Shown here: positions 13,827 to 54,392 of the stretch, piece after piece
How positions within the stretch are numbered: the first letter of the stretch is position 1
How the letters are laid out: each line of letters opens with the position of its first letter
Assembly: GCA_963827755.1 (NCBI GenBank)
Contig: CAWHCQ010000004.1
Coordinates: forward strand, 1 to 64,000
DNA length: 64,000 nucleotides
Direction: 5' to 3'
Source of the DNA: an uncultured Gammaproteobacteria bacterium
GTDB lineage: Bacteria > Pseudomonadota > Gammaproteobacteria > UBA9214
Notes under the pieces: model-generated
What the model was told of the DNA's origin: nothing
Databases searched by the model: none
The model's input: only the letters and a program-made list of their open reading frames with translations
Made by a program: the position numbers and the translations under genes

Positions 13827-13853
13827 CACCCTTATAATCGAGGAGGCAAGCCT

Positions 13854-15340: not shown

Positions 15341-15342
15341 CG

Positions 15343-15975: not shown

Positions 15976-16003
15976 CACGGCCCGGCATGTCTGCCGGGCC
16001 GTG
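15976..16003. terminator. Hairpin between convergent genes
   Basis: 12-bp perfect stem CACGGCCCGGCA/TGCCGGGCCGTG, 4-nt loop; weak U-tract. Confidence 0.55.
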
Positions 16004-16014
16004 AATACACCTGC

Positions 16015-25995: not shown

Positions 25996-26600
25996 ATGCA
26001 GAGCTGACAGTCTTTGTGGTGGATGACGACGAAGAGGTCCGTAATGCCATGAAGCTGTTAATGAATTCAGTCGGACTCGCGGTGGAAACTTTCGCATCAG
26101 CAGAGGAATATCTCGCCCAGTTTGATCCTGCACGGCCTGGCTGTCTGCTGCTGGATATCCGTATGAAAGGCATGAGTGGCCTTGAGGTGCAGGAGCGGCT
26201 CGCCCTCGAGGAAATTCAGCCGCCGATTATTATCATCACCGGCCACGGCGATGTTCCGATGGCAGTACGCACCGTCAAGGCGGGAGCGGTCGACTTCATC
26301 GAGAAACCGTTCAACGAACAGGTGCTGCTGGACAGTGTCCATCGCGCCATCGAGCTGGATGGGGAACATCGTGGCCGGGTAATGCAACTGGCAGATATCA
26401 GCGCCCGTCTGGAATGCCTGACGCCGCGGGAACGCGAGATTCTCGAGCTGGTGGTTGCCGGCAAACGCAACAAGGTGATTGCCGGCGAGTTGGGCATCAG
26501 CCAGTCCACGGTGGAAGCCCACCGGTCCAAGGTCATGGAAAAGATGCAGGCCAAGTCGCTGTCCGATCTGATGCGGATGATGTTGTCCCTGCAGGCCTAG
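25992..26600 (+). CDS. FixJ/TtrR-family response regulator
   Basis: VVDDD, LLDIRM, ITGHGDVPMAV, GAVDFIEKP, LTPRE, NKVIA..LGIS..TVE.HR; ATGA overlap. Confidence 0.93.
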   Translation: MNAELTVFVVDDDEEVRNAMKLLMNSVGLAVETFASAEEYLAQFDPARPGCLLLDIRMKGMSGLEVQERLALEEIQPPIIIITGHGDVPMAVRTVKAGAVDFIEKPFNEQVLLDSVHRAIELDGEHRGRVMQLADISARLECLTPREREILELVVAGKRNKVIAGELGISQSTVEAHRSKVMEKMQAKSLSDLMRMMLSLQA

Positions 26601-26850: not shown

Positions 26851-27417
26851 ATGAGAAATATTGTTCTGTCGATTATTGGATTGAGCCTCGTCGCCTGCCA
26901 GCCGGCATCAACCGAAGATCTCGACCAGCGCACAGCCGAGAGCCGTGCGGTCACCATGGAATTCATGACGATGCTGAAAGGTGAGCTCCAGTCCGCGATG
27001 AAGGCCGGCGGACCCGTAAATGCGATTCAGGTCTGCAACACGCGTGCGCCGGAGATCGCAGCCGGCTTCTCTGCGCAAAAGGGCTGGACGGTTGCACGGA
27101 CCAGTCTCAAATACCGCAATCCGGACAATGCACCGGACGCATGGGAGCGCACGGTCCTGGAACAGTTTGAGGAGCGCAAGGCCAACGGTGAGGACCCGAA
27201 ACAGATGGTCTACGCCGACGTGGTCAAGGAAGGCGGGACGAAAAAATTTCGTTTTATGAAAGCCATCCCCACCGGCCCCGTCTGCCTGGCCTGTCATGGT
27301 GAAACAATCGATACCGCCGTCGAGGCCAGGATTCAGGAACTCTATCCGGAGGATCGTGCTCGTGGCTACAATGCCGGCGACATTCGCGGTGCCTTCACCA
27401 TCACACAACCGATGTGA
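26851..27417 (+). CDS. DUF3365/Tll0287-like c-type heme lipoprotein
   Basis: Lipobox LVAC; AIQVC, RTSLKYRNPDNAPD.WE, FMKAIP, CLACH, YP.D.A.GY..GDIRGAF. Confidence 0.88.
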   Translation: MRNIVLSIIGLSLVACQPASTEDLDQRTAESRAVTMEFMTMLKGELQSAMKAGGPVNAIQVCNTRAPEIAAGFSAQKGWTVARTSLKYRNPDNAPDAWERTVLEQFEERKANGEDPKQMVYADVVKEGGTKKFRFMKAIPTGPVCLACHGETIDTAVEARIQELYPEDRARGYNAGDIRGAFTITQPM

Positions 27418-27449: not shown

Positions 27450-27473
27450 GCCCGGCACTGCCGGGCTTTTTTT
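27450..27473 (+). terminator. Intrinsic terminator
   Basis: GCCCGGC/GCCGGGC stem followed by T7. Confidence 0.75.
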
Positions 27474-27944: not shown

Positions 27945-28955
27945 ATGAAACGATCAATAATGTATGTCGTGCGCTGTGTCGTGGTCGCATTGTTCGCCTG
28001 GGGCGGTACTGCCGTGGCGGCGCAATGGGCAAACCCCGAGCTTCTTGTCAGTGCCGATGAACTCAAGAAGGGTATGGAACAGGGCAATTGGGTGGCAGTC
28101 GACTGCCGTGGTCTGAAAGACTATATCGCAGGCCATATACAGGGGGCGATCAGTTTCGGAAATCGCTGCAAGAAGGCACTTCGGGACCCCACCTCGCGGC
28201 TCTTTCGGGACATCTCGAAGTATGAAAAGCTGTTCGGCAAGGTGGGTATCAGTAACGACACCCACGTGGTCTTCTACTATGACGGGCTGGGTACGATGAA
28301 CGATGCCACCATAGGCTTCTGGGTCATGGAGTATCTCGGCCATGACAAGGCGCATGTCCTCAATGGCGGCGTTGACGCCTGGCGCAAGGCCGGCAACCGG
28401 CTGGATAACAAACCAGTCAAGTTGCAGGCAGCCACTTTCAAGGCCAATGTCATGCATAACCGTTACGCCGGCACGGATGAGATACTCGAGATTGCCAACG
28501 GCGAGAAGCCGGACACGCAACTCCTCGACTCAAGATCAGAGAAAGAGCATCAAGGCAAGGACATCCGTGCGCTACGCGGCGGCCATGTGGCGAACACGGC
28601 GCTTAACGTCTCGCACAAAGATACGCTGCTCAAGGAAAAAAACAAAAAGACAGGCAAGATGGAGGTCGTTGCCTACCTCGATGCAGATGCCGCCGCGAAG
28701 GCGTTTGCGCCACTGGACAAGAACAAGCGCGTAGTGGCCCACTGCCAGACAGGTACCCGCTCGACCCTGACTTACCTGCAGCTGCGGGCCCTCGGCTTCA
28801 AGGACCCGGCCAACTGGGATGATTCATGGCGCATATACGGCTCCACGCTGGATTTTCCGGTCGAGGACGAGCAGTGGTACAACTTCGACGGCGTGAACAA
28901 GAAGATCAAGAGCCTGGAGAAAAAGGTCACGGCGCTGGAAAAGGCCAAAAAATAG
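27945..28955 (+). CDS. Secreted tandem-domain rhodanese/sulfurtransferase
   Basis: Signal peptide (..GTAVAA); Y..GHI.GA, VLNGG..AW, LDSRS..E, RGGH, active-site HCQTGTRS, WDDSW. Confidence 0.9.
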   Translation: MKRSIMYVVRCVVVALFAWGGTAVAAQWANPELLVSADELKKGMEQGNWVAVDCRGLKDYIAGHIQGAISFGNRCKKALRDPTSRLFRDISKYEKLFGKVGISNDTHVVFYYDGLGTMNDATIGFWVMEYLGHDKAHVLNGGVDAWRKAGNRLDNKPVKLQAATFKANVMHNRYAGTDEILEIANGEKPDTQLLDSRSEKEHQGKDIRALRGGHVANTALNVSHKDTLLKEKNKKTGKMEVVAYLDADAAAKAFAPLDKNKRVVAHCQTGTRSTLTYLQLRALGFKDPANWDDSWRIYGSTLDFPVEDEQWYNFDGVNKKIKSLEKKVTALEKAKK

Positions 28956-28990
28956 ACCTTGTTCATTTTCGTATAGCATCACAAGTCCGG

Positions 28991-29022
28991 GGCCAGGCGG
29001 GATAAATGCATCCCGCCTGGCC
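28991..29022 (+). other. Strong intergenic hairpin without U-tract
   Basis: 13-bp perfect stem GGCCAGGCGGGAT/ATCCCGCCTGGCC just after the rhodanese gene. Confidence 0.6.
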
Positions 29023-29060
29023 AGTGCGGGCCTGGTGCGCCAAATTCCCGGGGGTAAGTT

Positions 29061-30917
29061 TTGAGCGCAGTCTTGCAAGGCATATGCCACAGGAAGCAAT
29101 GGTCTGTCGCATCACCGAATATCCGGGCTGCGGATTCACAATCATGCAGTCCCGTTGCACACAAACATGCGCTGGCCTGGCGACGTCCTTCATTTGACGC
29201 CTTCGCGGATCTGCCGGGAAAAAGCGGCGGGTGGCTTGGGTTAAAGCGAAAAGAAGACCCGCTCTGGGTGGTGTTGATTACGCTGTGCACGCTGGGCACC
29301 TTGCTTGGCCTGTACAATCTGCGCACCCTGGATGATAACCGTCTGACCAGTTGGTGGTGGGTCTTTAACGACATTGCGCCGGTTGCATTTTTCCTGATGA
29401 TCGTGGCCGGTATTGCTCTGGCCTACGGGATTTCGAGGCTGTCTTTTCGTGGCCGGGCTGCGGTGCCGGCACTCTTCATGGCGGCGTTCCTTATTACTGC
29501 GGGCCTGTGGCAGCAACCGGAGGTGATCGTTGACGCTGCAAGACACTTCATGCAGGCCAAGTACCTCGAACTTCACGGAATCTGGTATTTCCTGTCAGCG
29601 TGGGGCAATGACATCCCGGCATGGACAGACCTGCCTCTGGCCCCGCTGATCTACGGGGTAATCTTCCAGGTCTTCGGCGAAAGCCGGCTCGCCATACAAA
29701 TTTTCACCAGCTTGCTGTTCTCGGCTACGGTGGTACTGACCTGCCTCATCGGCAAGACCTTGTGGTCCAGAGACCTCGGCTTGTTTGCCGGCATGCTGCT
29801 GCTCGGCATGCCCTATCTCCTGGTTCAGGTGCCACTGGTGATGGTCGATGTGGCAGCGATGTTCTTTCTGACACTGGCCGTGTTCGCAACTATCCTGGCC
29901 ATAACCCGCGGCGGTACGCTGTTCTGCGTGATGGCAGCGATAGCGATAACGCTGGCAATGCTGGCGAAATACTCGAACTGGCTGATGCTCAGCGTTGCGC
30001 CCATTATCGTACTGGCCCATGCGCGACTGGGCTGGAAGGTCGTTCTCCTGCGAGCGGCGTCAGTGGCGGCAGGCCTGCTGCTGCTTATGGGCACCTTCGT
30101 GTACCTGAAGTTTGACGTCGTTGCCGGGCAGATAAGTCTGCTGCACAGCTTTCAGGTGCCCGCTCTCGGACGCTGGGGGGAATCCCTGTTGTCCATGTTC
30201 TTTTTCCAGATTCATCCGTTTATAACCATATCTGCCGTGCTCTCCGTGTACCTCGCCGTAAAGAAGAGAGACGTAAAATACGCGATCATCGGCTGGATGT
30301 TGCTCGTCGTGATGGTTCTGGAGTTGCGGCGGATCCGCTACATGCTGGTTTTATTGCCCATGCTGGCACTGATGGCCGCATACGGACTGGAAGCACTAAA
30401 GCATGTCCAGTACAGGAAATTCATTGCGGCCAATACGGCGATCACTGCTGTCCTGATTGTCGTTGTTGGTTATCTCCCGTTTTCCCAGCGTACGAGCGCA
30501 AGCAACATCAAGCAGGCCGGTGAGTACCTCGATTCGATCCGGGCGGGCACGGCTGAAGTCTATGTACTTCCCCAGACAAACTCTTCGGTAAATCCTGCTG
30601 TGGCAGTGCCCATGCTGGATTTATTCACTGATCAGCAACTCGTCTACTACGCGGATGCAGGTACCGGGCCTGCCGCAGAGACGATTGCAAAGCTGCCCTG
30701 GCGATGGACCTGGGAGGTGGGCAGTCCGGAGTATCTGTCGCCAGTCGGCACATCCGGCGCGGTGTCGACCATTGTGGTTATTCAAAGCGAGGCGGAACAG
30801 GCGGTTCCGGATTCACTGGCGGAGCGTATTTACGGTTATCAGCTGAAGAAAGAATTCGCCGGGACGACTCGCGTATTCAGGTATCAAACAATTGTGAGAA
30901 TTTATCAGCGGGCATGA
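29061..30917 (+). CDS. GT-C fold glycosyltransferase (GT39/ArnT/PMT-like); start uncertain
   Basis: Many TM helices; D..RH..QA, DLPL.P.IYG..F..FGE, lumenal D (MVDV), LAKYS, RY....LP.LA; periplasmic C-terminal domain. Confidence 0.8.
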   Translation: MSAVLQGICHRKQWSVASPNIRAADSQSCSPVAHKHALAWRRPSFDAFADLPGKSGGWLGLKRKEDPLWVVLITLCTLGTLLGLYNLRTLDDNRLTSWWWVFNDIAPVAFFLMIVAGIALAYGISRLSFRGRAAVPALFMAAFLITAGLWQQPEVIVDAARHFMQAKYLELHGIWYFLSAWGNDIPAWTDLPLAPLIYGVIFQVFGESRLAIQIFTSLLFSATVVLTCLIGKTLWSRDLGLFAGMLLLGMPYLLVQVPLVMVDVAAMFFLTLAVFATILAITRGGTLFCVMAAIAITLAMLAKYSNWLMLSVAPIIVLAHARLGWKVVLLRAASVAAGLLLLMGTFVYLKFDVVAGQISLLHSFQVPALGRWGESLLSMFFFQIHPFITISAVLSVYLAVKKRDVKYAIIGWMLLVVMVLELRRIRYMLVLLPMLALMAAYGLEALKHVQYRKFIAANTAITAVLIVVVGYLPFSQRTSASNIKQAGEYLDSIRAGTAEVYVLPQTNSSVNPAVAVPMLDLFTDQQLVYYADAGTGPAAETIAKLPWRWTWEVGSPEYLSPVGTSGAVSTIVVIQSEAEQAVPDSLAERIYGYQLKKEFAGTTRVFRYQTIVRIYQRA

Positions 30918-30980
30918 GCCCCGGGTTTCCTGGTACGTAGAAATTACGTGCAGAAAATATAAGGTGAGGAGGAAAAGTCC

Positions 30981-32471
30981 ATGCAACAGCAAGTCGCAAG
31001 TGCAGCAACTGCCGATGCAGCAGTGGCAAAGATGACACTGGAAGAAGAGGCGAAAAGAAAAAAACGGTTCTGGGCAAACAGTCTGCTGGCATTTTTTGCA
31101 TTCATCAGCGTCGGGACCTATGTCTACAACGAGTACTACATCTATCTTTCGGTATACCTGTGGTTCGGAATGATTTACGGCATGTGCCTGCAGTACGGGA
31201 AATTCTGTTTCTCGTCGGCATTCAGGGACCTGTTTGCCATCAGGGTCCCGAGAATGCTGGTCGGCATCGTCATCGCAACGGTGCTGTTCGGGGTAGTATC
31301 GGCGCCGATCACAGCGATGGGGCTGAGCACCTTCCATGCTGCACCGGTCAGCAGTCATGCGATCATCGCCGGCGTGTTCTTCGGAATTGGCATGGTCATA
31401 GCCGGCGGCTGTGCATCGAGTTCCCTGTACAAGACCGGCGAGGGGAACATGAACGCGCTCATCGTGATTCTGTCCCTCAGCCTCACGCAGGCGTTGTTTG
31501 CCGACGTCGGCGGATGGGCCAACTATTTCGTACCGGAGGCCTGGGCACAGTCGGCGGCCGAGAAGGGTCTGCCTGCGTCAATCAATGTTACCGATGGCTG
31601 GGTCGACCAGTATCTCGCCGGCTACGTCTGGAACCAGCCGGCGCTGACCTATGCGAATGTACTGGGTTTGCAGACGGATTCGGTATCTGGCGCATTCGTG
31701 GGTAACTTGCTGGTGGGTATTCTCATTCCCGCAGCACTGCTGCTCGCCCTGGTCTACGCTATTTACTGGCGCAAGGGATACCGCAACAAACAGAAAAAGG
31801 CAGGCAAGGAGGTCAGTGGTCTCAGTGGCGAACTGGCCGGCTACTGGTCGATGATTATCGCAAACAAGCGGACCGCCATTGCCGGACTGATCCTGGGTAT
31901 CGCCTGTGCACTGCATATGCTTGTCATGCAGGGCTTGCGAGTGAAATTCGGCTTCAAAAATGCCGGGGTGTTGCTGGAGCGTATCGGCTGGGACTTCGGC
32001 CTGTCGGTACAGGGGACTGTCTTCGATCCGGGCTACTGGTATGTGACAACCCAGGAGGCACAATGGGTCGGCTGGACGCTGCAGAAAATGGGTATCAATA
32101 ACCTGGACAATATCTATTTCGGATTCGTCAATGGCATCCCGAACCCGGCGATCAATCCTGCCGACTGGATGTCCTTTGCGCTGATCGGCGGAGCGGCAAT
32201 CATCGCGCTCTACCACGACGAATTCAAGTTCAAGAAGCCCACCTGGGAGACCGCCATGTGGTCGGTTATCGGCGGATTTTTCATGGGCATCGGTGCGCGA
32301 CTTGGACTCGGGTGCAACGTGGGCGCCTTCTTCGTACGGGTCGCCAACGGCGACTGCTCGGGCTGGTTGTTCGGCCTGGGGATGGCGGGCGGGGCCTATC
32401 TGGGCGTCAAGTTCTTCAACTGGTGGACCGAGAAAAAGCTTGCCAAGGAAATGGAAGCGTGTGGTTTTTAA
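30981..32471 (+). CDS. yeeE: YeeE/YedE family sulfur-compound transporter (copy 2, long form)
   Basis: GKFCFSSAFRD, GIGMVIAGGCASS, GIGARLGLGCNVG (three conserved Cys); GAGGAGG RBS. Confidence 0.9.
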   Translation: MQQQVASAATADAAVAKMTLEEEAKRKKRFWANSLLAFFAFISVGTYVYNEYYIYLSVYLWFGMIYGMCLQYGKFCFSSAFRDLFAIRVPRMLVGIVIATVLFGVVSAPITAMGLSTFHAAPVSSHAIIAGVFFGIGMVIAGGCASSSLYKTGEGNMNALIVILSLSLTQALFADVGGWANYFVPEAWAQSAAEKGLPASINVTDGWVDQYLAGYVWNQPALTYANVLGLQTDSVSGAFVGNLLVGILIPAALLLALVYAIYWRKGYRNKQKKAGKEVSGLSGELAGYWSMIIANKRTAIAGLILGIACALHMLVMQGLRVKFGFKNAGVLLERIGWDFGLSVQGTVFDPGYWYVTTQEAQWVGWTLQKMGINNLDNIYFGFVNGIPNPAINPADWMSFALIGGAAIIALYHDEFKFKKPTWETAMWSVIGGFFMGIGARLGLGCNVGAFFVRVANGDCSGWLFGLGMAGGAYLGVKFFNWWTEKKLAKEMEACGF

Positions 32472-32500
32472 CTTAGTCAGTACATAACGGGGTATCTAAA

Positions 32501-32752
32501 ATGGGTATGAAATTCGAGAAGACCGACGATGGGCGTTATCGCCTGAACGTCAACGGGTATGTGTGTCCGCATCCGCAGATATACACAAAAAAGGCCCTGG
32601 AGAAGCTGGCCTCGGGCGAAGTCCTGGAGCTGATTTTTGACAATCCCTCATCTGGCGAATCCATTCAGCAAATGGTAGAGAATGACGGCAACGAGATGCT
32701 GGACCAGAAAAAAGAGAGTGGCCAGTTTATTTGGCAAATTCAGAAAGTATAG
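32501..32752 (+). CDS. tusA: TusA/YeeD-family sulfur carrier
   Basis: LNVNGYVCPHP (CPxP), KKAL..L..GEVLE...DNP.S..SI. Confidence 0.9.
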   Translation: MGMKFEKTDDGRYRLNVNGYVCPHPQIYTKKALEKLASGEVLELIFDNPSSGESIQQMVENDGNEMLDQKKESGQFIWQIQKV

Positions 32753-32860
32753 TTCCGTGGAGTTATCGCAGACTGTGTGATTGCCGGGTGGCGCCTGTCG
32801 TCGTTGAATGAGCAAACGATGAGAGTCATCCGATGGATAAGCGGATATAGAGGGGGCGTT

Positions 32861-33055
32861 ATGAAAAGTGATCTTTGGTTTGTATTTGCAGTGACTGCCG
32901 GGTTTCTGGGTTTTCTCATGGGCTACGGCGTGCCGCCGATGCAGGAGGTCGGTATCGCTGCCGTCGGTGGACACGGCGGCCCGGCGGTCGAGAGCGCCGC
33001 CGAGACCGACGCCGCGATGGAACAGTTCAGGGAACTGCAGAAGCTCACTGAATGA
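32861..33055 (+). CDS. Small single-pass membrane protein 1 (64 aa)
   Basis: GAGGGGG RBS then ATG; TM helix ending GFLMGYGVPP; acidic tail. Confidence 0.7.
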   Translation: MKSDLWFVFAVTAGFLGFLMGYGVPPMQEVGIAAVGGHGGPAVESAAETDAAMEQFRELQKLTE

Positions 33056-33152
33056 ATGCTGCGTGGGCCAGAGGTTCCGGGCAGCGTGTGCCCGGGCCGT
33101 GAAAGATGGCCCCGCTTGTATTGATGGTATAGCGAAACAAGAGGACAAAAAA

Positions 33153-33368
33153 TTGTCGAATATATATCTTCGAACAGCGATAACAGGCGGCGCGTTTATC
33201 GTGGCCTTTCTGCTGGGTTATAGCATCTCGGCGCGCACCGGGGTGGAACCCGGGTATTTTTCAGCGGTGGAGGTTGGCTCCTACGGCGCGCCGGAGGGGG
33301 AGAGTAAAATCGAAGGCCTGTCGGATCAGGATGCGGACTACTACAAGTCCCTGATGAACGAAGAATAG
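33153..33368 (+). CDS. Small single-pass membrane protein 2 (71 aa)
   Basis: GAGGA RBS then TTG; TM helix ending AFLLGYSIS; TGVEPGYF...GSYG; acidic tail. Confidence 0.7.
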   Translation: MSNIYLRTAITGGAFIVAFLLGYSISARTGVEPGYFSAVEVGSYGAPEGESKIEGLSDQDADYYKSLMNEE

Positions 33369-33524
33369 TCCAGTGCGATTGGCCAAAAGAGAAAAGCCTG
33401 TCGCGCGGATCGGTAGGGCTTGTTCGGTTGACGCCATGTCAGGAATCCAGCACAACGGCGCTTCGGGAAAGCCCGTTGCGCCGGTCATGCGATGGTCGAG
33501 ATGTAGCAGACCAGGCAAACCGCT

Positions 33525-34952
33525 ATGGATGTTCTGAATACGCAGTTCAATTACGCTGTGATCCTCGGGGGCGGGCCCTCGGGCCTGGCCGCGGGGCATG
33601 TGCTGTCTGAATCCGGGTGCAATGTCCTTGTCATCGAGCGCCAGGCGCGCGTCGGCGGTCTCGCCAAGACCCTCGAGCACCATGGCTTCAGATTCGACCT
33701 GGGCGGTCACCGCTTTATCACCGGCAACAAACAGCTGGAGAGCCTGGTAAGGGAAATTCTCGGGGGTGAACTGTTGACGGTCGAGCGTTCGAGCAAGATC
33801 CTGCTCGATGGCAAGCTCTATGACTACCCCATAACTGTTCGCAATGCCCTTTCCCGGCTCGGTTTGCGCAAGTCGATCAGGATAGGTGCGGACTATTTAC
33901 TGGAACAGATGCGCAAACGCTTTAGAAAGACCCCGATCATCTCGCTGGAAGACTGGGTCGTGCAGCACTTCGGGCGTTCCCTGTTCGAGTTGTTTTTCAA
34001 GGAATACAGCGAGAAGGTCTGGGGTATACCCTGTAACAGAATTGCCAGGGAGTGGGTCGCCGCGAGGATAAAGGGCCTGTCCCTCGGGGTGGCCATCAAG
34101 GCAGCATTCTCGCGCACCGGGTCGCGACGCCCGCGGACACTGGCGAATCAGTTTCTGTATCCGCCGCTTGGTATCGGACAGATCTGCGACGGCCTCAAAG
34201 CGCGGATAGACGAGATCGGTCAGGTAATGACGGATACGCGTGTGATCGGCATCAACCATGCGGATAACCGGATCCAGAGCATCATCGTAAAGGATGCCGG
34301 CGGCGTTCAGGGGTATACGGGCTACGAATTCATCTCCAGCATTCCATTGACGCTGGTCGTCCAGCTGCTTAATCCACAACCGCCCGCAGAGATCCTCCAG
34401 GCGGCGGCCAGCCTTCGATTCAGGGATCTCATCGTGGTGACCGTAATGATCAACCGGGAACATGTCACCGACCAAACCTGGATATACGTACCTGACTCGA
34501 CGGTACCCTTCGGCCGAATCCACGAACCGAAGAACTGGAGCGCCCGAATGGCGCCCGAGGGCAAGACTCACCTTGTGGTCGAGTATTTCTGCTTCAGGGA
34601 AGATGCTATCTGGGCGGAGACAGATACGATGCTTGCACAGCGCACAGTCCGTGAACTCGGCAAGCTCGGGATAATCGAAGTGGAAGAGGTTTACGACAGT
34701 GTAGTAATGAAGATACCAAACGCCTATCCGCTGTTCGAGGTGGACTATATCGAGAAACAGAAATGTATTGTTGATTATCTCGAGCGGTTCACGAACCTTG
34801 AGCTGGTCGGGCGGGGAGGCCAGTTCGAATACTACAATACCGATCACGCCATGGAGTCCGGTATCGCTGCGGCGGAGGCCATTCTTGCGCGAATCGATGG
34901 CACGGTCGCCGTGCGAACACCGGTGCTGGCAAGAGGCCGGGTATGCCCATGA
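33525..34952 (+). CDS. FAD-dependent oxidoreductase (protoporphyrinogen oxidase/UDP-galactopyranose mutase-like)
   Basis: GGGPSGL, VGGL..T, FDLGGHRF, YSEKVWG, FLYP..G.GQ, GRIHEPKNWS, AYP, GRGGQFEYYNTDHAM. Confidence 0.85.
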   Translation: MDVLNTQFNYAVILGGGPSGLAAGHVLSESGCNVLVIERQARVGGLAKTLEHHGFRFDLGGHRFITGNKQLESLVREILGGELLTVERSSKILLDGKLYDYPITVRNALSRLGLRKSIRIGADYLLEQMRKRFRKTPIISLEDWVVQHFGRSLFELFFKEYSEKVWGIPCNRIAREWVAARIKGLSLGVAIKAAFSRTGSRRPRTLANQFLYPPLGIGQICDGLKARIDEIGQVMTDTRVIGINHADNRIQSIIVKDAGGVQGYTGYEFISSIPLTLVVQLLNPQPPAEILQAAASLRFRDLIVVTVMINREHVTDQTWIYVPDSTVPFGRIHEPKNWSARMAPEGKTHLVVEYFCFREDAIWAETDTMLAQRTVRELGKLGIIEVEEVYDSVVMKIPNAYPLFEVDYIEKQKCIVDYLERFTNLELVGRGGQFEYYNTDHAMESGIAAAEAILARIDGTVAVRTPVLARGRVCP

Positions 34953-36439
34953 AGTGTGTGCTGATACATCCCGCGTGGTCCCCGGAGGAAATCTTCCCTG
35001 CCGGGACGGTCACGTCGCAGATCAACTACTGGCAGCCACTCGGCACCCTCTACGTGGGCGCCGCGATGCTCGAGGCGGGGCATGAGGTTGAGTTTTTGAA
35101 TGGTGCATTCATGACCCATGAGGCGATCATGGCGCGAGTTGCGGAGATCCGCCCGGAGTTCGCCGGCCTTTACTCGACGACCTTTGGCTTTTCGAAGGCG
35201 GTCCATACGGCGAACGCGCTCAAACAGTTCGACAGGGACATGTTCGTGTGTGTTGGCGGCCCCTATCCCATGGCCATGAAGTATCAGTGTCTCGAGGGGG
35301 AGGGGGCGAACTTCGATGCGGTGGTCACCGGCGAGGCCGAATTGGCGATCGTTGAGCTGCTCGAACGACTGGCGGGGGATATGGGTCTCACAGGTCTGGC
35401 GGGGGTGGATTTCAGGGTGGGCGGCGAGATTATCCGCAACCCGCCCCGCGCGCTGCTCGAAGACCTCGATTCACTGCCATTCCCGGCCCGGCACCTGCTG
35501 GGCGAGAAGGCGCACTACATCCCGCCGCCGGGTCAGTACCGGCGCAAGCCGGTCACGATCCTGATTACGTCGCGGGGCTGCGACAGACGCTGCATTTTCT
35601 GTTTTCAGGTCGACAAAGAGCGCCAGTATGGCAGCCGCGGAGTCCGGTTCCGCAGCGTCGAGAATGTCCTGCAGGAGATCGAGCTGTGCCTCGCCCAGGG
35701 CTATCGGGAGATCAAGTTCATCGACGACACGTTTGCCGCCAACTACGACCGGGCCATGGATATCTGCCGGGAGATAAAGCGACGCAAGCTCGATTTCACC
35801 TGGTTTGCCTCGGCCTGCGTGAACCAGGTCGACCCGCCGCTGCTGCAGGCCATGAAAGACGCCGGCTGCTGGGCGATCCTGTTCGGGGCGGATAGCGGCG
35901 TGCAGAAGACACTCAATTCACTGCGCAAGGCGACCACGCTCGAGATGATCCGGCGCGATGTCGCGTGGGCGAAACAGGCCGGTATCCGTGTGAGTACCCC
36001 GTTTATCTTCGGTGCGCCCGGCGAGACCTTCGAGGACGGACTGAAGACGATCGAATTCGCCGTGGAGCTCGATGCCGATCTGGCCAACTTCCATTCGCTC
36101 ACGCCGTTTCCGGGTACGCCGTTGCACGACAACCTGGAGAAATACGGGAGCGTCTCGGAGAATCTCTCGGATCGTACCTATCAGTCAGCTGCGTTCGTGC
36201 CCTATACGATGACGCGCGATGAAATCCTCAACTTGCGCCAGATTGCGTTCCGGCGTTTTTACACCCGGCCGAAGTTCCTGTTGCGCCGGTTACTGCAGAT
36301 GCGTTCCTGGAATGACCTGCGGGTCAATTTTCAGGGTCTGCGAAGCCTCTACCAGCTTTGGGCCACGCGTAATTTATTTCACGGCTGGAAAGGCAAGGCG
36401 GGAACGCCTGAAATCGCCGGGCGGAGCGCTGAGGAATGA
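34949..36439 (+). CDS. Cobalamin-binding radical SAM enzyme
   Basis: PLGTLYVGA, VGGPY, GEAE (B12 domain); TSRGCDRRCIFC (CxxxCxxC); FIDDTF; FIFGAPGET; PFPGTPL; ATGA overlap. Confidence 0.92.
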   Translation: MKCVLIHPAWSPEEIFPAGTVTSQINYWQPLGTLYVGAAMLEAGHEVEFLNGAFMTHEAIMARVAEIRPEFAGLYSTTFGFSKAVHTANALKQFDRDMFVCVGGPYPMAMKYQCLEGEGANFDAVVTGEAELAIVELLERLAGDMGLTGLAGVDFRVGGEIIRNPPRALLEDLDSLPFPARHLLGEKAHYIPPPGQYRRKPVTILITSRGCDRRCIFCFQVDKERQYGSRGVRFRSVENVLQEIELCLAQGYREIKFIDDTFAANYDRAMDICREIKRRKLDFTWFASACVNQVDPPLLQAMKDAGCWAILFGADSGVQKTLNSLRKATTLEMIRRDVAWAKQAGIRVSTPFIFGAPGETFEDGLKTIEFAVELDADLANFHSLTPFPGTPLHDNLEKYGSVSENLSDRTYQSAAFVPYTMTRDEILNLRQIAFRRFYTRPKFLLRRLLQMRSWNDLRVNFQGLRSLYQLWATRNLFHGWKGKAGTPEIAGRSAEE

Positions 36440-36490
36440 CGCTGCGGCGACTTGATTGTTCTCATCCATGAAAACAGGAGACCTGATACG

Positions 36491-36781
36491 ATGAACATTC
36501 TATTTGAGATATCATCGGGCGATGCGTCCAGTGTACTGGTGCCGCTGGCCCGGGCCTGCGATCGCAACGGGGTGACATGGAGCTGCTTTTTTACCGGCGA
36601 CGGCGTCAAGACCCTCGCGCGTGACGATGTCCGTGCAACAATCGCGGGGGCAGCGAGCGCGGCGGCCTGTGAAGTTTCCTGGGAACGCTACATGGGAGAC
36701 CAGCCCTGTCCCGTGGAGATAGGCAGCCAGACCAACAACAGCGCCATGGTCGGTGATGTCGACAAAATCGTCAGCCTTTAG
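36491..36781 (+). CDS. DsrE-like sulfur relay protein
   Basis: FFTGDGV and ACEVS (DsrE-type Cys), D.IVSL end; AGGAG RBS. Confidence 0.78.
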   Translation: MNILFEISSGDASSVLVPLARACDRNGVTWSCFFTGDGVKTLARDDVRATIAGAASAAACEVSWERYMGDQPCPVEIGSQTNNSAMVGDVDKIVSL

Positions 36782-36793
36782 GAGGGCATTCAA

Positions 36794-37066
36794 ATGGCAC
36801 AGAATAAATCAATCCTCATGCTTGGACGTCGGGACCCGACAGAGACCATGCGCGTTGCTGCGGGTCTGACGATTTTCAATCATACGCCGAGCATAGTGTT
36901 TCTGGTGCCGGTACCGGATACGCCCGAGAATGCCGAGATGGCGGAGTTGCTGGAGTTCTCGGATATCGAATCGAAGACCACGGTAGAAAATCAATCGCTT
37001 CCGCATATCGGGGCAGATGCCCTTGCTGCCGCCATCCTCGCAGCAGACGAGGTCATCAACATCTAG
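36794..37066 (+). CDS. DsrF-like protein
   Basis: E.MRVAAGL, ADEVINI end typical of the DsrEFH fold; follows dsrE-like gene; no Cys. Confidence 0.6.
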   Translation: MAQNKSILMLGRRDPTETMRVAAGLTIFNHTPSIVFLVPVPDTPENAEMAELLEFSDIESKTTVENQSLPHIGADALAAAILAADEVINI

Positions 37067-37092
37067 TCACAACAGCAAGAGGAGGCACCGGC

Positions 37093-37275
37093 ATGAAGAT
37101 CGTTGTTCTGAACACAGGAATGTTTCCCGAGAAAGGTGCGCTTGAGGACGCACTTGCGCAGCTTGGGTCTGACCACGAGGTTTCCCGGCATGATGCGGAG
37201 GGCGAGCACGCTGATGACGACTGGGACCGCACCGTGCAGGCAATCGTGTCCGCCGATCGGGTCATAACCCTCTGA
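37093..37275 (+). CDS. DsrH-like small protein
   Basis: GAGGAGG RBS; WD..V..I..ADRVITL end; third gene of the trio. Confidence 0.55.
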   Translation: MKIVVLNTGMFPEKGALEDALAQLGSDHEVSRHDAEGEHADDDWDRTVQAIVSADRVITL

Positions 37276-37439
37276 CGGACAACAGCCGCGTCCACGCGGG
37301 CACATCCGCCGGTCGCCCCTGCACGCCGAGGGAGAGAATCAGTTTGTACGAATCGCGCGTTGAGCCCCTGTGGTTTCCATTCCACCGGCCACGGCACAGC
37401 ACCACCATGTCATAACAATCGAATAAACAGGAGTGAAGC

Positions 37440-37886
37440 ATGAAGACACAACGTATTCTCGCACCGGTTGATGGTTCAAAATTGTGTCATTTCGCTCTCG
37501 ACGAGGCAGACAGGCTGGCTTCGCAGAGCGGTGGCGAATTGACCCTGATGTTCGTTCATGAGCCGGCAACGGTCCATCTCATGGATGATGATTTTCCGGA
37601 GCCTGCGGAGACGACAGAGTTATTGGCGGCGGCGGCGAAAAATATCATGGAAAAATGTGCTGGTGCGTGCATCACGCCCGAGAAACACCGGCACATTGTC
37701 ATCGAGCGCGGCTCACCGGCACAGACCATTATCGAACACTCGGGGGAGTACGACCTGATCGTCATGTCAACGCACGGGCACTCGGGAATGAAACACTTCC
37801 ATCTTGGCTCGGTGGCGGAGCGTGTGGTCCGCGGTTCGCACTGCGACGTGCTTGTGGTAAAACAGCCAAGTGACAGAAGCGATTGA
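37440..37886 (+). CDS. Universal stress protein (UspA family)
   Basis: RILAPVDGS, GSP...I, DLIVMSTHG.SG...LGSVAERVVR...C.VLVVK. Confidence 0.93.
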   Translation: MKTQRILAPVDGSKLCHFALDEADRLASQSGGELTLMFVHEPATVHLMDDDFPEPAETTELLAAAAKNIMEKCAGACITPEKHRHIVIERGSPAQTIIEHSGEYDLIVMSTHGHSGMKHFHLGSVAERVVRGSHCDVLVVKQPSDRSD

Positions 37887-37982
37887 GCTGACTGGCAGCG
37901 ATCCGCTGTGCCTGAATGCGCGGGCAACAGGAAAATGATGTGCATCGCGGGCGAATGCAGGACTGTATATCGATAGCCGCGC

Positions 37983-38987
37983 ATGAATGAACTCGTCTCG
38001 ATCATCATCCCCGTTCGAAACGGAGAAGCTACAATCGCACGTTGCCTGGAAGCGGCACTCGCATCGCGCTATGAGCGCTTCGAGGTGATCGTCGTCAATG
38101 ATGGCTCGGACGATCGTTCAGCCGAGATAATAAAGACCTTCCCATGCACCCTCGTTCAGCTGCCCGGGCACTCCGGGACGTCGACTGCACGCAATACCGG
38201 CGCTTGCCACAGTCACGGGGATATCCTGTTTTTCACCGATGCGGACTGCCTGTTGAACGAGGATACCCTCGCGATTGCCGTCGCCACACTGACGGCTGCG
38301 GGCCGGGACGTGGTACTGGGCGGAACCTATACGGCGCAGCCGGCTGACGATCGTTTCTTCAGTGCATTCCAGTCGGTCTTCGTCAATCACGCCGAAAGCC
38401 GTGATCGCGACAACCCCGACTACATTGCGGCACATGCCATGGTGCTGTACGCAGATACATTCGAGAAAAGCGGAGGGTTTGTCGAAGACTTTCTGCCTAT
38501 ACTCGAGGATGTCGACTTCAGTCACCGGTTGCGAAGTAGCGGGTATCGACTCGTTATGAATCCCGGGATTCAGGTCCGGCACCTGTTCGACTATTCCCTT
38601 CTGGGGTCGGCCTGCAATGGTTTCAGAAAATCCAAATACTGGACTATCTATTCCATACATCACAGGGATTTGCTTGCGGACTCCGGCACGGCATCGCGGG
38701 CATTGAAGCTTGATGTGATAGCCCTGTTCGGCAGTGTCCTTGCAGCAGCGCTCGTCCTGGGTACCGGGAATGCGTGGTTCTCCGTTCTTATCGCAGTGCT
38801 GATGGCGCTGAACATCACTGTAAATCGCGAGCTACTGCAGGGGTTCTACCGTGCACGCGGGATGGCTTTTGCGCTCGCGGCTTCGGCCTACTACCTCCTG
38901 GTCTACCCCCTGGTGGTCGGCGCGGGTGGCCTCGCCGGGTTGCTGGGCTACCGCCGGTACGCCGGGTTACTGGAGGCTGCCGGCTGA
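37983..38987 (+). CDS. Family 2 glycosyltransferase with C-terminal TM helices
   Basis: VSIIIP.RN, VVNDGSDD, ARN.G, FTDAD (DxD), GGF, EDVDF..RL. Confidence 0.92.
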   Translation: MNELVSIIIPVRNGEATIARCLEAALASRYERFEVIVVNDGSDDRSAEIIKTFPCTLVQLPGHSGTSTARNTGACHSHGDILFFTDADCLLNEDTLAIAVATLTAAGRDVVLGGTYTAQPADDRFFSAFQSVFVNHAESRDRDNPDYIAAHAMVLYADTFEKSGGFVEDFLPILEDVDFSHRLRSSGYRLVMNPGIQVRHLFDYSLLGSACNGFRKSKYWTIYSIHHRDLLADSGTASRALKLDVIALFGSVLAAALVLGTGNAWFSVLIAVLMALNITVNRELLQGFYRARGMAFALAASAYYLLVYPLVVGAGGLAGLLGYRRYAGLLEAAG

Positions 38988-40075
38988 TGTCCTCGATGGT
39001 GCGGCATGCAGGCTCGATCTTCTGGAAACGGCGGCCCGTTCATCTGACGTTTTTTCTGACCCGCAAGTGTAATGCCCACTGTCCGTTCTGTTTTTACCTG
39101 AAGAGTCCGGATAACCCGCAGACCGGGGCAGCGGAGTTGTCTCTCGATGAGATTGAGCGCATCTCCCGGTCCCTGGGCAGGTTGTTGTGGCTTGCCTTCT
39201 CGGGCGGCGAGGTCTATCTGAGGAAGGACCTGGTCGAGATAAGCAAGCTTTTCTACGATCGAAACAGGCCCGCCGTCATGCTGTACCCGAGCAACGGCAT
39301 GCTGCCCGATCTGATCCGGGATCAAACGGAGCGGATTGCAGCGCACTGCCGCAGCAGTGTCGTCGTCGTCAAGCTCTCGCTCGATGGTATCGGCACTGAC
39401 CATGACACGCTACGCAATACCCCAGGCAATTTTGACAGGACCATGCAGACCTATGCACACCTTCAAGGCCTCCTCGATGTCTATCCTAATTTCGAACTCG
39501 GCTTTAATACCGTGCTCACTGCGCAGAACCAGGACAAGATCGAAGCGCTCATCGATTATGTCGCTGGCCTGGACAGGCGCACAACGCACACCATCTCGAT
39601 GGTGCGCGGGAACCTGCTGGACAACGGATTCAAGCAGGTCGATCCTGAGAATTACCGCCGCGCCGCAGAAATACTGGCAACCCGCCTCCGGGAGCGGACC
39701 TCCGGCATTAACCGGTTCAGGGGAGCGCGTCTCAAGGCGGCGCAGGACGTACTGCAGCGCCGGTTTATTCACCAGACACTGACCGGACAGGACCGGTCAC
39801 TGCCCTGTTACGCGGGGAAGCTCAACCTGGTGCTGACCGAATCGGGCGAGGTGTACCCCTGCGAGATTCTTCCGCAGAGTCTCGGCAACGTGCGGGACCA
39901 TGATTACGACATCATGCAGGTGACCCGCACCGGGAAGGCGCGCGAGGTCCTGCATTCAATATCCGCCGGTAACCCGCACTGCCGGACCTGCACGCACGAA
40001 TGCAACTACATCACGAATATCCTGTTCAACCCCGCGATGTATCCCGCATTGATGAAGGAGTATCTTCGACTATAA
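38987..40075 (+). CDS. Radical SAM protein with SPASM/twitch domain
   Basis: CNAHCPFC, SGGE, SNG, SLDG..HD..R; CYAG...GEVYPC...CRTCTHEC; TGATG overlap with GT2. Confidence 0.9.
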   Translation: MSSMVRHAGSIFWKRRPVHLTFFLTRKCNAHCPFCFYLKSPDNPQTGAAELSLDEIERISRSLGRLLWLAFSGGEVYLRKDLVEISKLFYDRNRPAVMLYPSNGMLPDLIRDQTERIAAHCRSSVVVVKLSLDGIGTDHDTLRNTPGNFDRTMQTYAHLQGLLDVYPNFELGFNTVLTAQNQDKIEALIDYVAGLDRRTTHTISMVRGNLLDNGFKQVDPENYRRAAEILATRLRERTSGINRFRGARLKAAQDVLQRRFIHQTLTGQDRSLPCYAGKLNLVLTESGEVYPCEILPQSLGNVRDHDYDIMQVTRTGKAREVLHSISAGNPHCRTCTHECNYITNILFNPAMYPALMKEYLRL

Positions 40076-40181
40076 CGGTACAGCAGCGACCCGCTTGCCC
40101 GTAAAAGAACGTGCCCGGGCAGGACCGGCACCCGGGCGGGAATGACGGATTTCCGGTCGTTCGGGTTCAGGCAACAGGAAG

Positions 40182-41447
40182 CTAGCCCCGGCTATCCAGC
40201 AATTTGTCACGCACGAGGCCGATATGCAGGCGCAGGCTGTAGAGTTCATCCGTATAGGACAGGGGTACGTTGACCTTGCGCACTTCTTCTTCCAGCTTGT
40301 CGAGTTTTTGCAGCAGTGATTCCAGGGCCTCGGCGGAATGTGTTGCGGGGTTTTCGGTATCCAGTGCCTGCAGTTCACGGTACCAGCGATAGATCTTCTT
40401 GCGTACCTGCCAGCGGTAGGTCGGCGGCGTGATTTTGGCCAGCGGCAGCAACAGCGTCAGCAGCGGCACCAGCATGATCTTGAGACGGTCGATCAGGCTG
40501 GCCGTCCAGAAGGGCAGGTAGCGCTGCAGGAAGGGTGGTCCGTGTTTGTAGAAGCGGCGCGCGTCATCGTTCAGCGGAAATTCCAGGTTCTTGCTGTTGG
40601 GAAAGACGCCGGGCTTCTCGAACAGGCCGCTGGTCTCGTGCACGCGGCTGGCGGCCTGTAACAGCAGGCTGACCAGTGCGGGGTGGAAATCCTTGTCTGC
40701 GACGAGGTTCGCAGTCGCCGCCAGCAGAATGGTGTCGTGCGCGGGAATGTTTGCCTGCAGGTCGATGACGCCCTCGGACAGGGTGACGGCAGAGAGAAAG
40801 TGGTGCATCCGCGTGTAGGCGGTGGCGCGTGCAAAGGACATCAGGCGAATATCCCGCCGCTGCAGCAGCTGCTGCACCAGCGGTGCGGCGGGTGCGGCGA
40901 CCAGGAAGAGGGCGTCGATACGGCCCTGTAACAGGGCCTGCGCGGCGCCGGCGCCGCCGATGGGCTGAATATTGTCATTCCCGGCATCGATGAAATTGTC
41001 CGCCAGCAGCTGGCTGGCGATGGCGTGGGTGCCGCTGCCGCGCTCACCGATGGCGACACGCATGTCCTGCAGTTCGCCCAGCCGGGTCAGCGTTTGCTCG
41101 CCGCGGTAAAAAACCCACAGGGGCTCGTAATACAGGCTGCCCAGGCTGGTGAGGGTGCCGCCATCCGCTTGAGTGCCGGTACCGCCCTGCACGAATGCGA
41201 GGTCAACCTCGCCGCGCTGCAGTAATTCGAGATTCTCGATAGAGCCCGCCGTATTGCGGATTAGCAGCTCGACACCGTTCTGCGCCAGCCATTCCCGGTA
41301 GCGCCGGGCGAACAGGTAGTACGCGCCATCCGTGTGACCGGTAGCGATGGTCAGGGTGCGCGGTGGTGCGGGATTCACGAACTGCCAGGCGATGAAGAAG
41401 CCGATGAGCGTGAGCAGCAAGGTTATGCCTATTGTCAGCAGACGCAT
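40182..41447 (-). CDS. Membrane-anchored TAXI family TRAP solute-binding protein
   Basis: IATG..DGAY, TAGS.ENL, DLAFVQGG, LYYEPLWVF, GSGT, GPPFLQRYLPFW. Confidence 0.88.
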   Translation of the reverse strand: MRLLTIGITLLLTLIGFFIAWQFVNPAPPRTLTIATGHTDGAYYLFARRYREWLAQNGVELLIRNTAGSIENLELLQRGEVDLAFVQGGTGTQADGGTLTSLGSLYYEPLWVFYRGEQTLTRLGELQDMRVAIGERGSGTHAIASQLLADNFIDAGNDNIQPIGGAGAAQALLQGRIDALFLVAAPAAPLVQQLLQRRDIRLMSFARATAYTRMHHFLSAVTLSEGVIDLQANIPAHDTILLAATANLVADKDFHPALVSLLLQAASRVHETSGLFEKPGVFPNSKNLEFPLNDDARRFYKHGPPFLQRYLPFWTASLIDRLKIMLVPLLTLLLPLAKITPPTYRWQVRKKIYRWYRELQALDTENPATHSAEALESLLQKLDKLEEEVRKVNVPLSYTDELYSLRLHIGLVRDKLLDSRG

Positions 41448-54181: not shown

Positions 54182-54204
54182 TCGTTTTGTATTGCAGGCA
54201 TTTC

Positions 54205-54330: not shown

Positions 54331-54340
54331 AATGACAGGC

Positions 54341-54376: not shown

Positions 54377-54392
54377 GTGTTACAGATCCCCG

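Follow-up and report, generated by a model that had tools for sequence, protein, structure and literature searches.

A conserved, apparently transferred gene cluster that interleaves sulfur relay genes with radical S-adenosylmethionine and membrane glycosyltransferase genes in an uncultured gammaproteobacterium

The window analyzed here is a 64,000-nucleotide stretch of DNA from an uncultured gammaproteobacterium (lineage UBA9214; assembly GCA_963827755.1, contig CAWHCQ010000004.1, positions 1 to 64,000), and its subject is a gene cluster at positions 27945 to 40075. This region contains 14 consecutive open reading frames (ORFs), all on the + strand and at or near the coordinates given in an initial annotation made from the sequence, and genes for sulfur transfer are interleaved in it with genes for sugar chemistry rather than lying side by side with them. 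Families were assigned by Pfam and NCBIfam profile searches; scores are in bits, and where two are given, the second is the cut-off of the family. The searches confirmed the previously proposed families overall, including glycosyltransferases (GT), radical S-adenosylmethionine (SAM) enzymes, a flavin adenine dinucleotide (FAD) enzyme, and a universal stress protein (USP), whereas of the proposed trio of DsrE/F/H-like proteins two are shown to be of DsrE type. The genes are as follows.

27945-28955, + strand: tandem-domain rhodanese, probably exported (PF00581, 94.8 bits, two stretches)
29061-30917, + strand: GT-C, an ArnT/PMT_2-like membrane glycosyltransferase with a C-terminal soluble domain (PMT_2, 29.9 versus 26.1 bits)
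30981-32471, + strand: long YeeE/YedE-family sulfur transporter of 496 amino acids (PF04143, 134.5 bits versus a cut-off of 27, residues 73-474)
32501-32752, + strand: TusA-family sulfur carrier (PF01206, 69.3 versus 28.6 bits; CPHP at residues 22-25)
32861-33055, + strand: sm1, small membrane-anchored Gly/Tyr peptide of 64 amino acids (alignment A1)
33153-33368, + strand: sm2, paralog of sm1, 71 amino acids, with a TTG start behind GAGGA
33525-34952, + strand: FAD enzyme of the PRK07208 family, UDP-galactopyranose mutase (UGM)-like (NCBIfam PRK07208.1-4, 436 versus 389 bits)
34949-36439, + strand: B12-binding radical SAM enzyme (PF02310, 57.7 bits, and PF04055, 78.3 bits; CX3CX2C)
36491-36781, + strand: E1, DsrE-family protein with an invariant Cys (relatives match PF02635)
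36794-37066, + strand: E2, protein of DsrE/F/H fold without the Cys (predicted model)
37093-37275, + strand: E3, 60 amino acids, kind unproven (present in the 8 closest loci only)
37440-37886, + strand: USP (PF00582, 102.5 bits)
37983-38987, + strand: GT2, membrane-integrated, with a minimal cellulose/hyaluronan synthase-like fold (PF00535, 104.6 bits)
38987-40075, + strand: radical SAM/SPASM enzyme (PF04055, 40.7 bits, and PF13186, 23.3 bits)

Both of the start/stop overlaps reported earlier, at 34949 and 38987, are present. The stop of the FAD gene and the start of the B12 gene share ATGA at 34949-34952, and the stop of the GT2 gene shares one base with the ATG of the SPASM gene in TGATG at 38985-38989.

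A scan of species genomes yielded 65 loci, and 39 of these, from alpha-, beta-, and gammaproteobacteria and from Nitrospirota, carry the B12 radical SAM enzyme at 54% identity or more. Among these 39 loci, a gene was counted as testable where the contig reached its expected place. GT-C was present in all of its testable loci (20/20), YeeE in 25/26, TusA in 26/28, the small Gly/Tyr peptides in 28/30, the FAD enzyme in 28/34, E1 in 18/19, E2 in 18/19, the SPASM enzyme in 33/36, GT2 in 31/34, and the rhodanese in 15/17. The misses come mainly from L006, which has the FAD, B12, and SPASM genes only, and from the Nitrospirota locus L040. The commonest gene order is E2-E1-GT-C-YeeE-TusA-sm1-sm2-FAD-B12, followed by inverted SPASM and GT2 genes and then the rhodanese. 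Distant loci, in which the E2-E1 pair lies upstream of GT-C, keep the same gene set in another order, and most loci have two DsrE-type genes rather than three. The arrangement recurs in 39 related loci and is therefore far beyond chance, and our main argument for a functional unit is that the gene set is kept through rearrangement. The gene neighborhood counts over related loci thus substantiate the earlier proposal that the sulfur genes and the glycosylation and radical SAM genes form one conserved unit. The B12 enzyme itself is 60% to 91% identical across the proteobacterial classes and Nitrospirota, and its best-listed 120 relatives (database clusters) are 63% to 96% identical.

Whether such glycosylation and radical SAM genes usually occur without the sulfur genes had been raised as a point that would speak against the unit. 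In Proteobacteria they do not, and in Nitrospirota this is partly the case. Among 20 Nitrospirota loci, taken with about 9 kb per side, adjacent FAD and B12 genes are found in 19, GT-C in 18, TusA in 10, E1 in 11, E2 in 8, and GT2 and the SPASM enzyme in 10. A YeeE-like gene is adjacent in 14/20, a fifteenth locus having a 30% match far off, and the full proteobacterial form is found in 3 of the 20.

Among the sulfur-line proteins, the rhodanese has a hydrophobic, signal-like N-terminal segment (residues 22-40) and is probably exported; its active-site loop, CQTGTR, lies in the second domain. The YeeE protein matches S. thermophila YeeE in the PDB (1e-17) and has the cysteines Cys76, Cys144, and Cys445 in GKFC, AGGC, and GLGC contexts. 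By the offset of that alignment, Cys76 and Cys144 correspond in position to the first two of the three channel cysteines of the reference, given what we take to be the reference numbering. The protein stays under the equivalog cut-offs of TsuA and YedE (87.6 versus 400, 69.8 versus 645, and 138 versus 350 bits), and with its 496 amino acids it is a distinct long subfamily. A second YeeE-family gene, of ordinary length (400 amino acids; PF04143, 220.8 bits), lies in the window at 13854-15975 and is followed by a 95-amino-acid ORF without a family and then by a DUF6969 protein. The host genome has three TusA genes in all, namely, that of the cluster and two more, and five further DsrE-family matches.

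The small ORFs E1, E2, and E3 gave no Pfam match when queried singly. The E1 family is present in 27 places; in its alignment of 23 sequences (A2), C60 and S63 are invariant, and 18 of the 23 match PF02635. E2 was modeled with a predicted local distance difference test (pLDDT) value of 94.8, and the top Foldseek matches of the model are YchN, a DsrE/F-like protein, TusBCD, and DsrEFH. A profile comparison of E2 with E1 gave no signal (0.2%), and the fold alone connects the two. E3 was considered as a DsrH and rejected, the profile comparison (hhalign) showing a C-terminal motif alone (E2, 7.8%; E1, 30%). The window thus has a DsrE-type pair, E1 and E2, and one unproven third member, E3.

The peptides sm1 and sm2 share an N-terminal transmembrane (TM) helix, and F18, G21, Y22, E29, and G31 are invariant in alignment A1. 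Against Pfam they gave only subthreshold low-complexity matches (prion octapeptide, 23.5 versus 32 bits; mucin-like), and their family comprises 536 protein clusters with zero functional names, being called "hypothetical protein" where named. The matches of a hidden Markov model (HMM) built for the peptides are restricted to loci also holding YeeE and TusA, and no match was found in L006, L037, L040, L046, L047, and L049. In Nitrospirota, Gly/Tyr peptides stand behind YeeE-TusA in 10/10 loci with TusA and in 0/10 loci without it. Three of these loci, with a YeeE of 63% to 67% identity, have sm1 and sm2. In seven others, with a YeeE of 49% to 52% identity and TusA, TusA is followed by a peptide with a TM anchor like that of sm1 and sm2 and 4 to 13 GGYG repeats, for which no Pfam family match was found. 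The genes of these repeat peptides are the following.

L094, 12653-13042, - strand: GGYG-repeat peptide
L101, 12924-13205, - strand: GGYG-repeat peptide
L102, 12523-12816, - strand: GGYG-repeat peptide
L110, 12440-12763, - strand: GGYG-repeat peptide
L098, L105, and L109: GGYG-repeat peptide genes also present

The interval between the TusA and FAD genes was listed for six Nitrospirota loci (L094, L098, L101, L102, L105, and L109), and in these the USP gene comes next after the Gly/Tyr peptide gene. As the peptides co-occur with YeeE-TusA only, they belong to the YeeE-TusA side of the cluster and not to the radical SAM trio (the B12, GT2, and SPASM genes). A protein of 77 to 83 amino acids with a Cys-Gly-Cys tail was observed in other Nitrospirota loci (L091, 7772-8005; L092, 7269-7499; L093, 12221-12451, - strand; L040, 8284-8535). 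It lies between a distant YeeE-like gene (35% to 37%) and the flavoenzyme gene, in place of TusA and the peptides.

The FAD enzyme belongs to NCBIfam PRK07208.1-4, a family without an assigned function. Among PDB sequences it aligns best with eukaryote-type UGMs (6e-21), with one of them over nearly its full length, and the GGH loop, two Arg positions, and two Tyr positions align with those of the eukaryote-type enzyme; we assume that these positions have the roles that we attribute to them in UGM. The score with the bacterial UGM equivalog TIGR00031 is 55.6, versus a cut-off of 303.75. The enzyme is newly assigned here as putatively UDP-galactopyranose mutase-like. The nearest families of the B12 radical SAM enzyme are HpnJ (186.3 versus 577.6 bits, full length) and BchE (148 bits), and its PDB match is AprD4 (1e-25). 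The SPASM enzyme has a CX3CX2C motif and five C-terminal cysteines. It is nearest to TIGR04053 (75 versus 395 bits) and to heme pathway enzymes, all far under cut-off, and shows weak PDB matches to SkfB and the sugar decarboxylase BlsE. A tetrapyrrole function, raised by matches to BchE, AhbD/NirJ, and HemY-like proteins, was rejected, since the FAD enzyme aligns over its full length with UGM and with HemY only over the dinucleotide-binding start.

Of the two glycosyltransferases, GT-C has about 13 TM segments and falls in an Atlas "ArnT family" cluster (score, 1.00), and no match was found among PDB sequences. Its first loop is acidic, with D32, D33, and N34 conserved in 20 sequences, and its true start is probably later than 29061, homology beginning at about 29238. 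The model of GT2 (pLDDT, 93.6) ends in C-terminal TM helices. It superposes on the Chlorella virus hyaluronan synthase with a Z score of 24.8 over 309/334 residues (root mean square deviation, 3.2), TM helices included, on PcManGT with a Z score of 23.3 (284 residues), and on BcsA with one of 22.7 (307 residues). ArnC lies outside the 50 best by Z score in this comparison, and in Foldseek it reaches query TM-scores (TMq) of 0.42 to 0.45, versus 0.68 to 0.72 for the best hyaluronan synthase and BcsA entries. D40, D86, D88, E175, D176, and W220 are invariant, and QxxRW is replaced by K-x-x-Y-W. What we take to be the D, DxD, and ED motifs and the Trp would be compatible with an inverting synthase-like enzyme. 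Among named families, GT2 scores 99.2 (versus 280) with MftF, presumably itself an inverting synthase-like GT2, 29 (versus 529) with ArnC, 29.9 (versus 370) with PpgS, and 19 bits with HpnI. The earlier designation of GT2 as the loader of a polyprenyl phosphate is not supported by the model, whose fold is closer to the hyaluronan synthase type than to the ArnC/GtrB type, and the division of labor in which GT2 loads and GT-C transfers is therefore an assumption.

The host is represented by a 2.85-Mb metagenome-assembled genome that is 92% complete. It contains dsrA and, within the window itself, soxB, which together mark it as a sulfur oxidizer. Its dsrA is at the edge of a 6-kb contig, and its DsrE-family matches are scattered; for the canonical dsrEFH, the closest colinear carrier genome, G364, was examined instead. 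G364 has a canonical dsrABEFHC operon elsewhere, with all genes above cut-offs, so the DsrE-type proteins of the cluster constitute a second relay. Carriers also tend to have dsrA in wider samples. Among 301 sampled genomes of Actinomycetota, the B12 ortholog is present in 8 and dsrA in 13, and all carriers (8/8) have dsrA. In Gammaproteobacteria, carriers number 6 of 400 scored genomes, in five families besides the host's own; dsrA is present in 5/6 of them versus 124/401 genomes overall, the sixth carrier being 72% complete. In Nitrospirota, the B12 ortholog is present in 61 of 301 sampled genomes, and dsrA was found in 8 of the first 10 carriers versus 4 of the first 10 noncarriers, taken in the order of their handles. 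One-sided Fisher tests for dsrA gave 8.5e-13 for Actinomycetota, 0.012 for Gammaproteobacteria, and 0.085 for Nitrospirota.

Two genomes of the host's genus (G517 and G672; 98% and 100% complete) have dsrA and lack the cluster, and they share only the TAXI-type binding-protein gene at 40182-41447 (69% to 72% nucleotide identity). In G364, which belongs to another family, the stretch from an upstream sensor kinase gene to the SPASM gene is colinear at 77% to 83% nucleotide identity (G364:C7:77842-94345). Because same-genus genomes are without the cluster and a genome of another family is colinear with it, the unit is accessory and was probably transferred whole. These data suggest that it moved together with its regulator. 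We read it as an accessory of bacteria with Dsr-type dissimilatory sulfur metabolism that supplements this metabolism and lies outside the core Dsr pathway.

The regulator and the borders of the cluster are formed by the following features.

23839-25995, + strand: sensor histidine kinase with a TtrS-like periplasmic PhnD-type domain and PAS (Pfam Phosphonate-bd, PAS, HisKA, HATPase)
25992-26600, + strand: LuxR/FixJ-type response regulator paired with the kinase (Response_reg and GerE)
26851-27417, + strand: Tll0287-like protein, last gene of the upstream unit (PF11845, 105.7 bits)
27450-27466, + strand: terminator-like hairpin at the upstream border of the cluster, seven G-C pairs and then TTTTTTT
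40113-40137, - strand: terminator-like hairpin at the downstream border, separating the cluster from the convergent TAXI-type binding-protein gene

The best NCBIfam match of the kinase is TtrS (294.8 bits versus a cut-off of 750, residues 24-339), and the response regulator scores 235 versus 255 bits with FixJ and 175 versus 290 bits with TtrR. The kinase is a context regulator common only to the closest relatives, being present in L005 and colinear in G364, and the Tll0287-like gene precedes the cluster in L001, L005, and L016 as well. Inside the block, no hairpin of comparable strength (at least 7 pairs and a clean T run) was found. Together with the shared strand and the two start/stop overlaps, the flanking hairpins give the block an operon-like layout. 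A promoter scan was uninformative (3 sites versus 7.3 expected), and the base composition of the cluster is unremarkable. A metatranscriptome run (X20) contains contigs 90% to 95% identical to the kinase, rhodanese, FAD, B12 (1228 nucleotides), USP, and SPASM genes; none of these RNA library contigs on the six genes spans a gene junction, and DNA carry-over is possible.

Further sulfur genes lie in the window 12 to 19 kb downstream of the cluster (52238-55229 and 58730-58936), namely, soxB (711.7 bits with its neighbors in frame), a SoxA/TsdA-type cytochrome c gene in the reverse orientation, and an additional TusA gene. Two other loci in the window consist of split genes. A FadL/TodX-type outer membrane protein gene at 59043-60425 (- strand) is divided into three ORFs of 251, 133, and 123 amino acids, which cover profile positions 258-404, 81-176, and 2-72 and reflect a broken gene or an assembly error. 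At 43597-46318 (- strand), a MASE1-PAS-GGDEF ORF stops within GGDEF (profile positions 1-67), and the next ORF has GGDEF positions 96-161 and EAL; the two are probably one frameshifted gene.

The reading that we favor, tentatively and without holding it to be probable, is that one or more relay-fed radical SAM steps produce a sulfur-containing, furanose-derived sugar, which GT2 polymerizes or loads and GT-C attaches outside the membrane. The exported tandem rhodanese would take up sulfane sulfur in the periplasm, and the long YeeE channel, with the membrane-anchored Gly/Tyr peptides, would import it. TusA and then the DsrE-like E1/E2 pair would hold the sulfur as a persulfide, and this dedicated relay would hand it on for radical SAM catalysis in one or more steps. 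The UGM-like flavoenzyme, translationally coupled to the HpnJ/AprD4-like B12 radical SAM enzyme, would make the furanose, and the SPASM radical SAM enzyme may be a further sugar-tailoring part. The synthase-like GT2 would then polymerize or load the sugar, and the ArnT-like GT-C, on the periplasmic side, would attach it outside the membrane. We infer the direction of this sulfur flow; the families, catalytic residues, gene linkage, apparent mobility, and separate DsrEFH of the closest carrier are as shown above. As judged from the sequences, the parts appear competent: the radical SAM motifs are in place, as are the key cysteines of the rhodanese, YeeE, TusA, and E1, the flavoenzyme keeps the UGM-type positions, and GT-C has its conserved acidic first loop.

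Several observations weigh against this proposal. The link from sulfur to sugar is one that we infer from the genes, and no enzyme of the cluster reaches the NCBIfam cut-off of a characterized sulfur-inserting family. In Nitrospirota, 6 of the 20 loci are without an adjacent YeeE, and the SPASM enzyme is absent near the B12 gene in 7 of the 20. In Actinomycetota and one archaeal locus, the B12/GT2/SPASM trio occurs without neighboring sulfur genes, and since it stands alone there, the trio needs no adjoining relay, although the genomes concerned do carry dsrA. The Fisher values given above overstate the link with dsrA, as related genomes are not independent, and the Nitrospirota contrast is weak (p = 0.085). 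The predicted E1-E2 complex scored 0.34 versus 0.00 for the best control, and its runs agree in at least 96% of contacts with a partner pLDDT of at least 88; passing at so low a level was also seen for 18 of 157 solved complexes and for the only 2 of 215 mismatched pairs that passed, and the prediction is weak support for such a complex. In addition, DsrEFH type II relays are reported to pass sulfur to DsrC (PMC13293266), and a relay of this kind would explain the sulfur genes without a thio-sugar.

The loci in which the trio stands alone also have neighbors of their own. In L046 (Thermoleophilia; 11756-16873 and 4420-5640), genes next to the trio encode a corrinoid protein, a RACo-type activase, a URO-D/MtaA-like methyltransferase, and another B12 radical SAM enzyme. 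L049 has the same gene order and also this additional B12 radical SAM enzyme (its other neighbors were not scanned). In L037 (Hydrothermarchaeota; 666-2099), an IF-2B-family protein (ribose-bisphosphate/methylthioribose-phosphate isomerase family) is encoded directly upstream of the trio.

The rival that survives best, though we consider it rather unlikely, is that the cluster aids sulfur capture. In this case, a sulfur-free glycan, or glycosylated Gly/Tyr peptides, rhodanese, or another periplasmic acceptor, would bind or mobilize sulfur, and the relay would feed DsrC/DsrAB. In purple sulfur bacteria, the proteins of the sulfur globules consist of repeats rich in Gly and Tyr, and the Gly/Tyr peptides here track YeeE-TusA (10/10 versus 0/10 in Nitrospirota; 28/30 proteobacterial loci), with tails whose probable place, judged from the charge distribution, is the periplasmic side on which GT-C acts. 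Most carriers have dsrA, and DsrEFH type II with YeeE-TusA is reported to hand sulfur to DsrC (PMC13293266). However, the closest carrier already has a canonical DsrEFH for DsrC, so that a second relay would call for an explanation, an ordinary glycan would hardly warrant the cost of a mutase and two radical SAM enzymes, and the peptides are absent from the trio-only loci.

It is improbable that the cluster represents two unrelated modules, namely, YTD-type sulfur uptake (YTD being the yeeE-tusA-dsrEFH type II cluster) and envelope glycosylation, which share a mobile island without a biochemical link. The accessory and apparently transferred state of the unit, the occurrence of the trio alone in other phyla, and the resemblance of either half to a stand-alone system would all be expected of such an island, but the halves are interleaved and remain linked in two phyla despite at least two different gene orders, and dsrA is present in 8/8 Actinomycetota trio carriers even without adjacent sulfur genes. 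Within the favored reading of a sulfur-containing sugar, a bolder version, which we regard as decidedly doubtful, is that a glycoconjugate bearing a thiol or a thio-furanose, placed on the outward-facing side of the membrane beside the Gly/Tyr peptides, is the long-sought nucleophilic carrier that opens elemental sulfur or polysulfide; the opened sulfur would then enter Dsr-based oxidation or disproportionation by way of the rhodanese and YeeE.

A mycofactocin-like redox cofactor for sulfur metabolism, in which the Gly/Tyr peptides would be cross-linked or methylated by the radical SAM enzymes, oxidized by the flavoenzyme, and glycosylated by GT2, is very unlikely. Both peptide paralogs have invariant Tyr, Glu, and Gly residues, and the Nitrospirota peptides with 4 to 13 GGYG repeats resemble multicore precursors. 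MftF is the best NCBIfam match of GT2 (99 bits), and MftC is among the matches of the SPASM enzyme, yet both scores are far under cut-off (99 versus 280 for MftF; 40.9 versus 265 for MftC). Moreover, the peptides have an N-terminal TM anchor and track YeeE-TusA, none being found in the trio-only loci L006, L037, L046, L047, and L049 or in 10 Nitrospirota loci; the flavoenzyme retains UGM-type residues, and there is no conserved peptidase or RiPP recognition element (RRE) partner. Selenium or arsenic handling, raised in the initial annotation and taken here as import of the metalloid by a YedE/YedF-like pair for a seleno- or arsenosugar, is hardly credible, because its family matches (YeeE to the selenium-associated YedE/FdhT, 138 versus 350 bits; TusA to YedF, 51.7 versus 79; and GT2, as the second best, to the arsenosugar-associated TIGR04283, 86 versus 182) are all subthreshold, the partners are of sulfur type (DsrE family and rhodanese) in carriers with dsrA, ArsS is not among the 25 best matches of the SPASM enzyme, and no ars or sel genes occur within the window (selD was not searched genome-wide).

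How bacteria acquire sulfane or elemental sulfur and convey it to the Dsr enzymes of the cytoplasm is incompletely understood. In the cluster, sulfur import and relay are genetically joined to radical sugar chemistry and membrane glycosylation, in sulfur-cycling members of at least two phyla, and the radical core tracks dsrA in a third. The cluster points to an unstudied branch of sulfur metabolism, in the form of a sulfur-bearing sugar or of glycan-assisted sulfur capture, and, with the B12 ortholog in 61 of 301 sampled Nitrospirota genomes, it is frequent enough to be relevant to the sulfur cycle of sediments. Handles for its study are the conserved B12 radical SAM enzyme, a bacterial relative of eukaryote-type UGM, a minimal synthase-like GT2, and an unnamed Gly/Tyr peptide family.

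No characterized pathway with this gene set was known to the initial annotation, and in the literature searched, which did not cover subscription-only papers, we likewise found no description of a cluster combining YeeE/TusA/DsrE with radical SAM enzymes and glycosyltransferases. Among known systems, galactofuranose pathways, for example that of the mycobacterial cell wall, use UDP-galactopyranose mutase with GT2 and GT-C enzymes. The cluster likewise has a UGM-like flavoenzyme near GT2 and GT-C, with eukaryote-type UGM motif positions retained, but its enzyme falls below the bacterial UGM equivalog cut-off and is translationally coupled to a radical SAM enzyme. Like the two-step periplasmic glycosylation pairs ArnC/ArnT, GtrB/GtrC, and Ppm1/Pmt, the cluster combines a membrane GT2 with an ArnT/PMT_2-like GT-C; unlike in those pairs, GT2 superposes here on hyaluronan synthase, PcManGT, and BcsA, and no flippase gene was recognized.

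The closest likeness on the sulfur side is to the YTD cluster, whose small partners are reported to be recognized by structure only and whose sulfur is reported to reach DsrC in vitro (PMC13293266, PMC9751629). Shared features are a YeeE-family transporter, TusA, a single-Cys DsrE-like protein, DsrAB-bearing organisms, and small partners that are "hypothetical" by sequence and of DsrE/F/H fold by structure (E2 here). This likeness is one of gene content, fold, and published description, not of sequence comparison. Unlike the YTD cluster, the genes here do not form a contiguous yeeE-tusA-dsrE-chp-chp series, as four genes lie between TusA and E1, and GT-C, the two peptides, the mutase, and the B12 radical SAM enzyme stand between or beside the sulfur genes. 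The cluster also adds an exported rhodanese and the Gly/Tyr peptides, and its carriers include sulfur oxidizers that already hold DsrEFH type I.

On the sugar side, the HpnI/HpnK/HpnJ system for the hopanoid cyclitol ether and the archaeal calditol synthase Cds (PMC13459092) also combine a glycosyltransferase with a B12-domain radical SAM enzyme acting on a sugar bound to the membrane. With the B12 enzyme of the cluster, no named family scores higher than HpnJ, but the score is far under cut-off, GT2 barely matches HpnI, no hpn genes occur in the window, and the cluster goes further in encoding a sulfur relay, GT-C, a mutase, and one more radical SAM enzyme. In albomycin biosynthesis, AbmM is described as a radical SAM enzyme that inserts sulfur into a furanose ring with an Fe-S cluster as the donor (cited in PMC12691670), which provides a precedent for such a step. 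A furanose-forming enzyme, radical SAM enzymes with an auxiliary cluster domain, and a sulfur supply are encoded together here, a likeness of logic and not of compared sequence. The parts of the cluster belong to known families, whereas the coupled system matches no known kind. New here are the co-occurrence with dsrA, the UGM assignment, the synthase-like fold of GT2, the tie of the peptides to YeeE-TusA, and the evidence of mobility.

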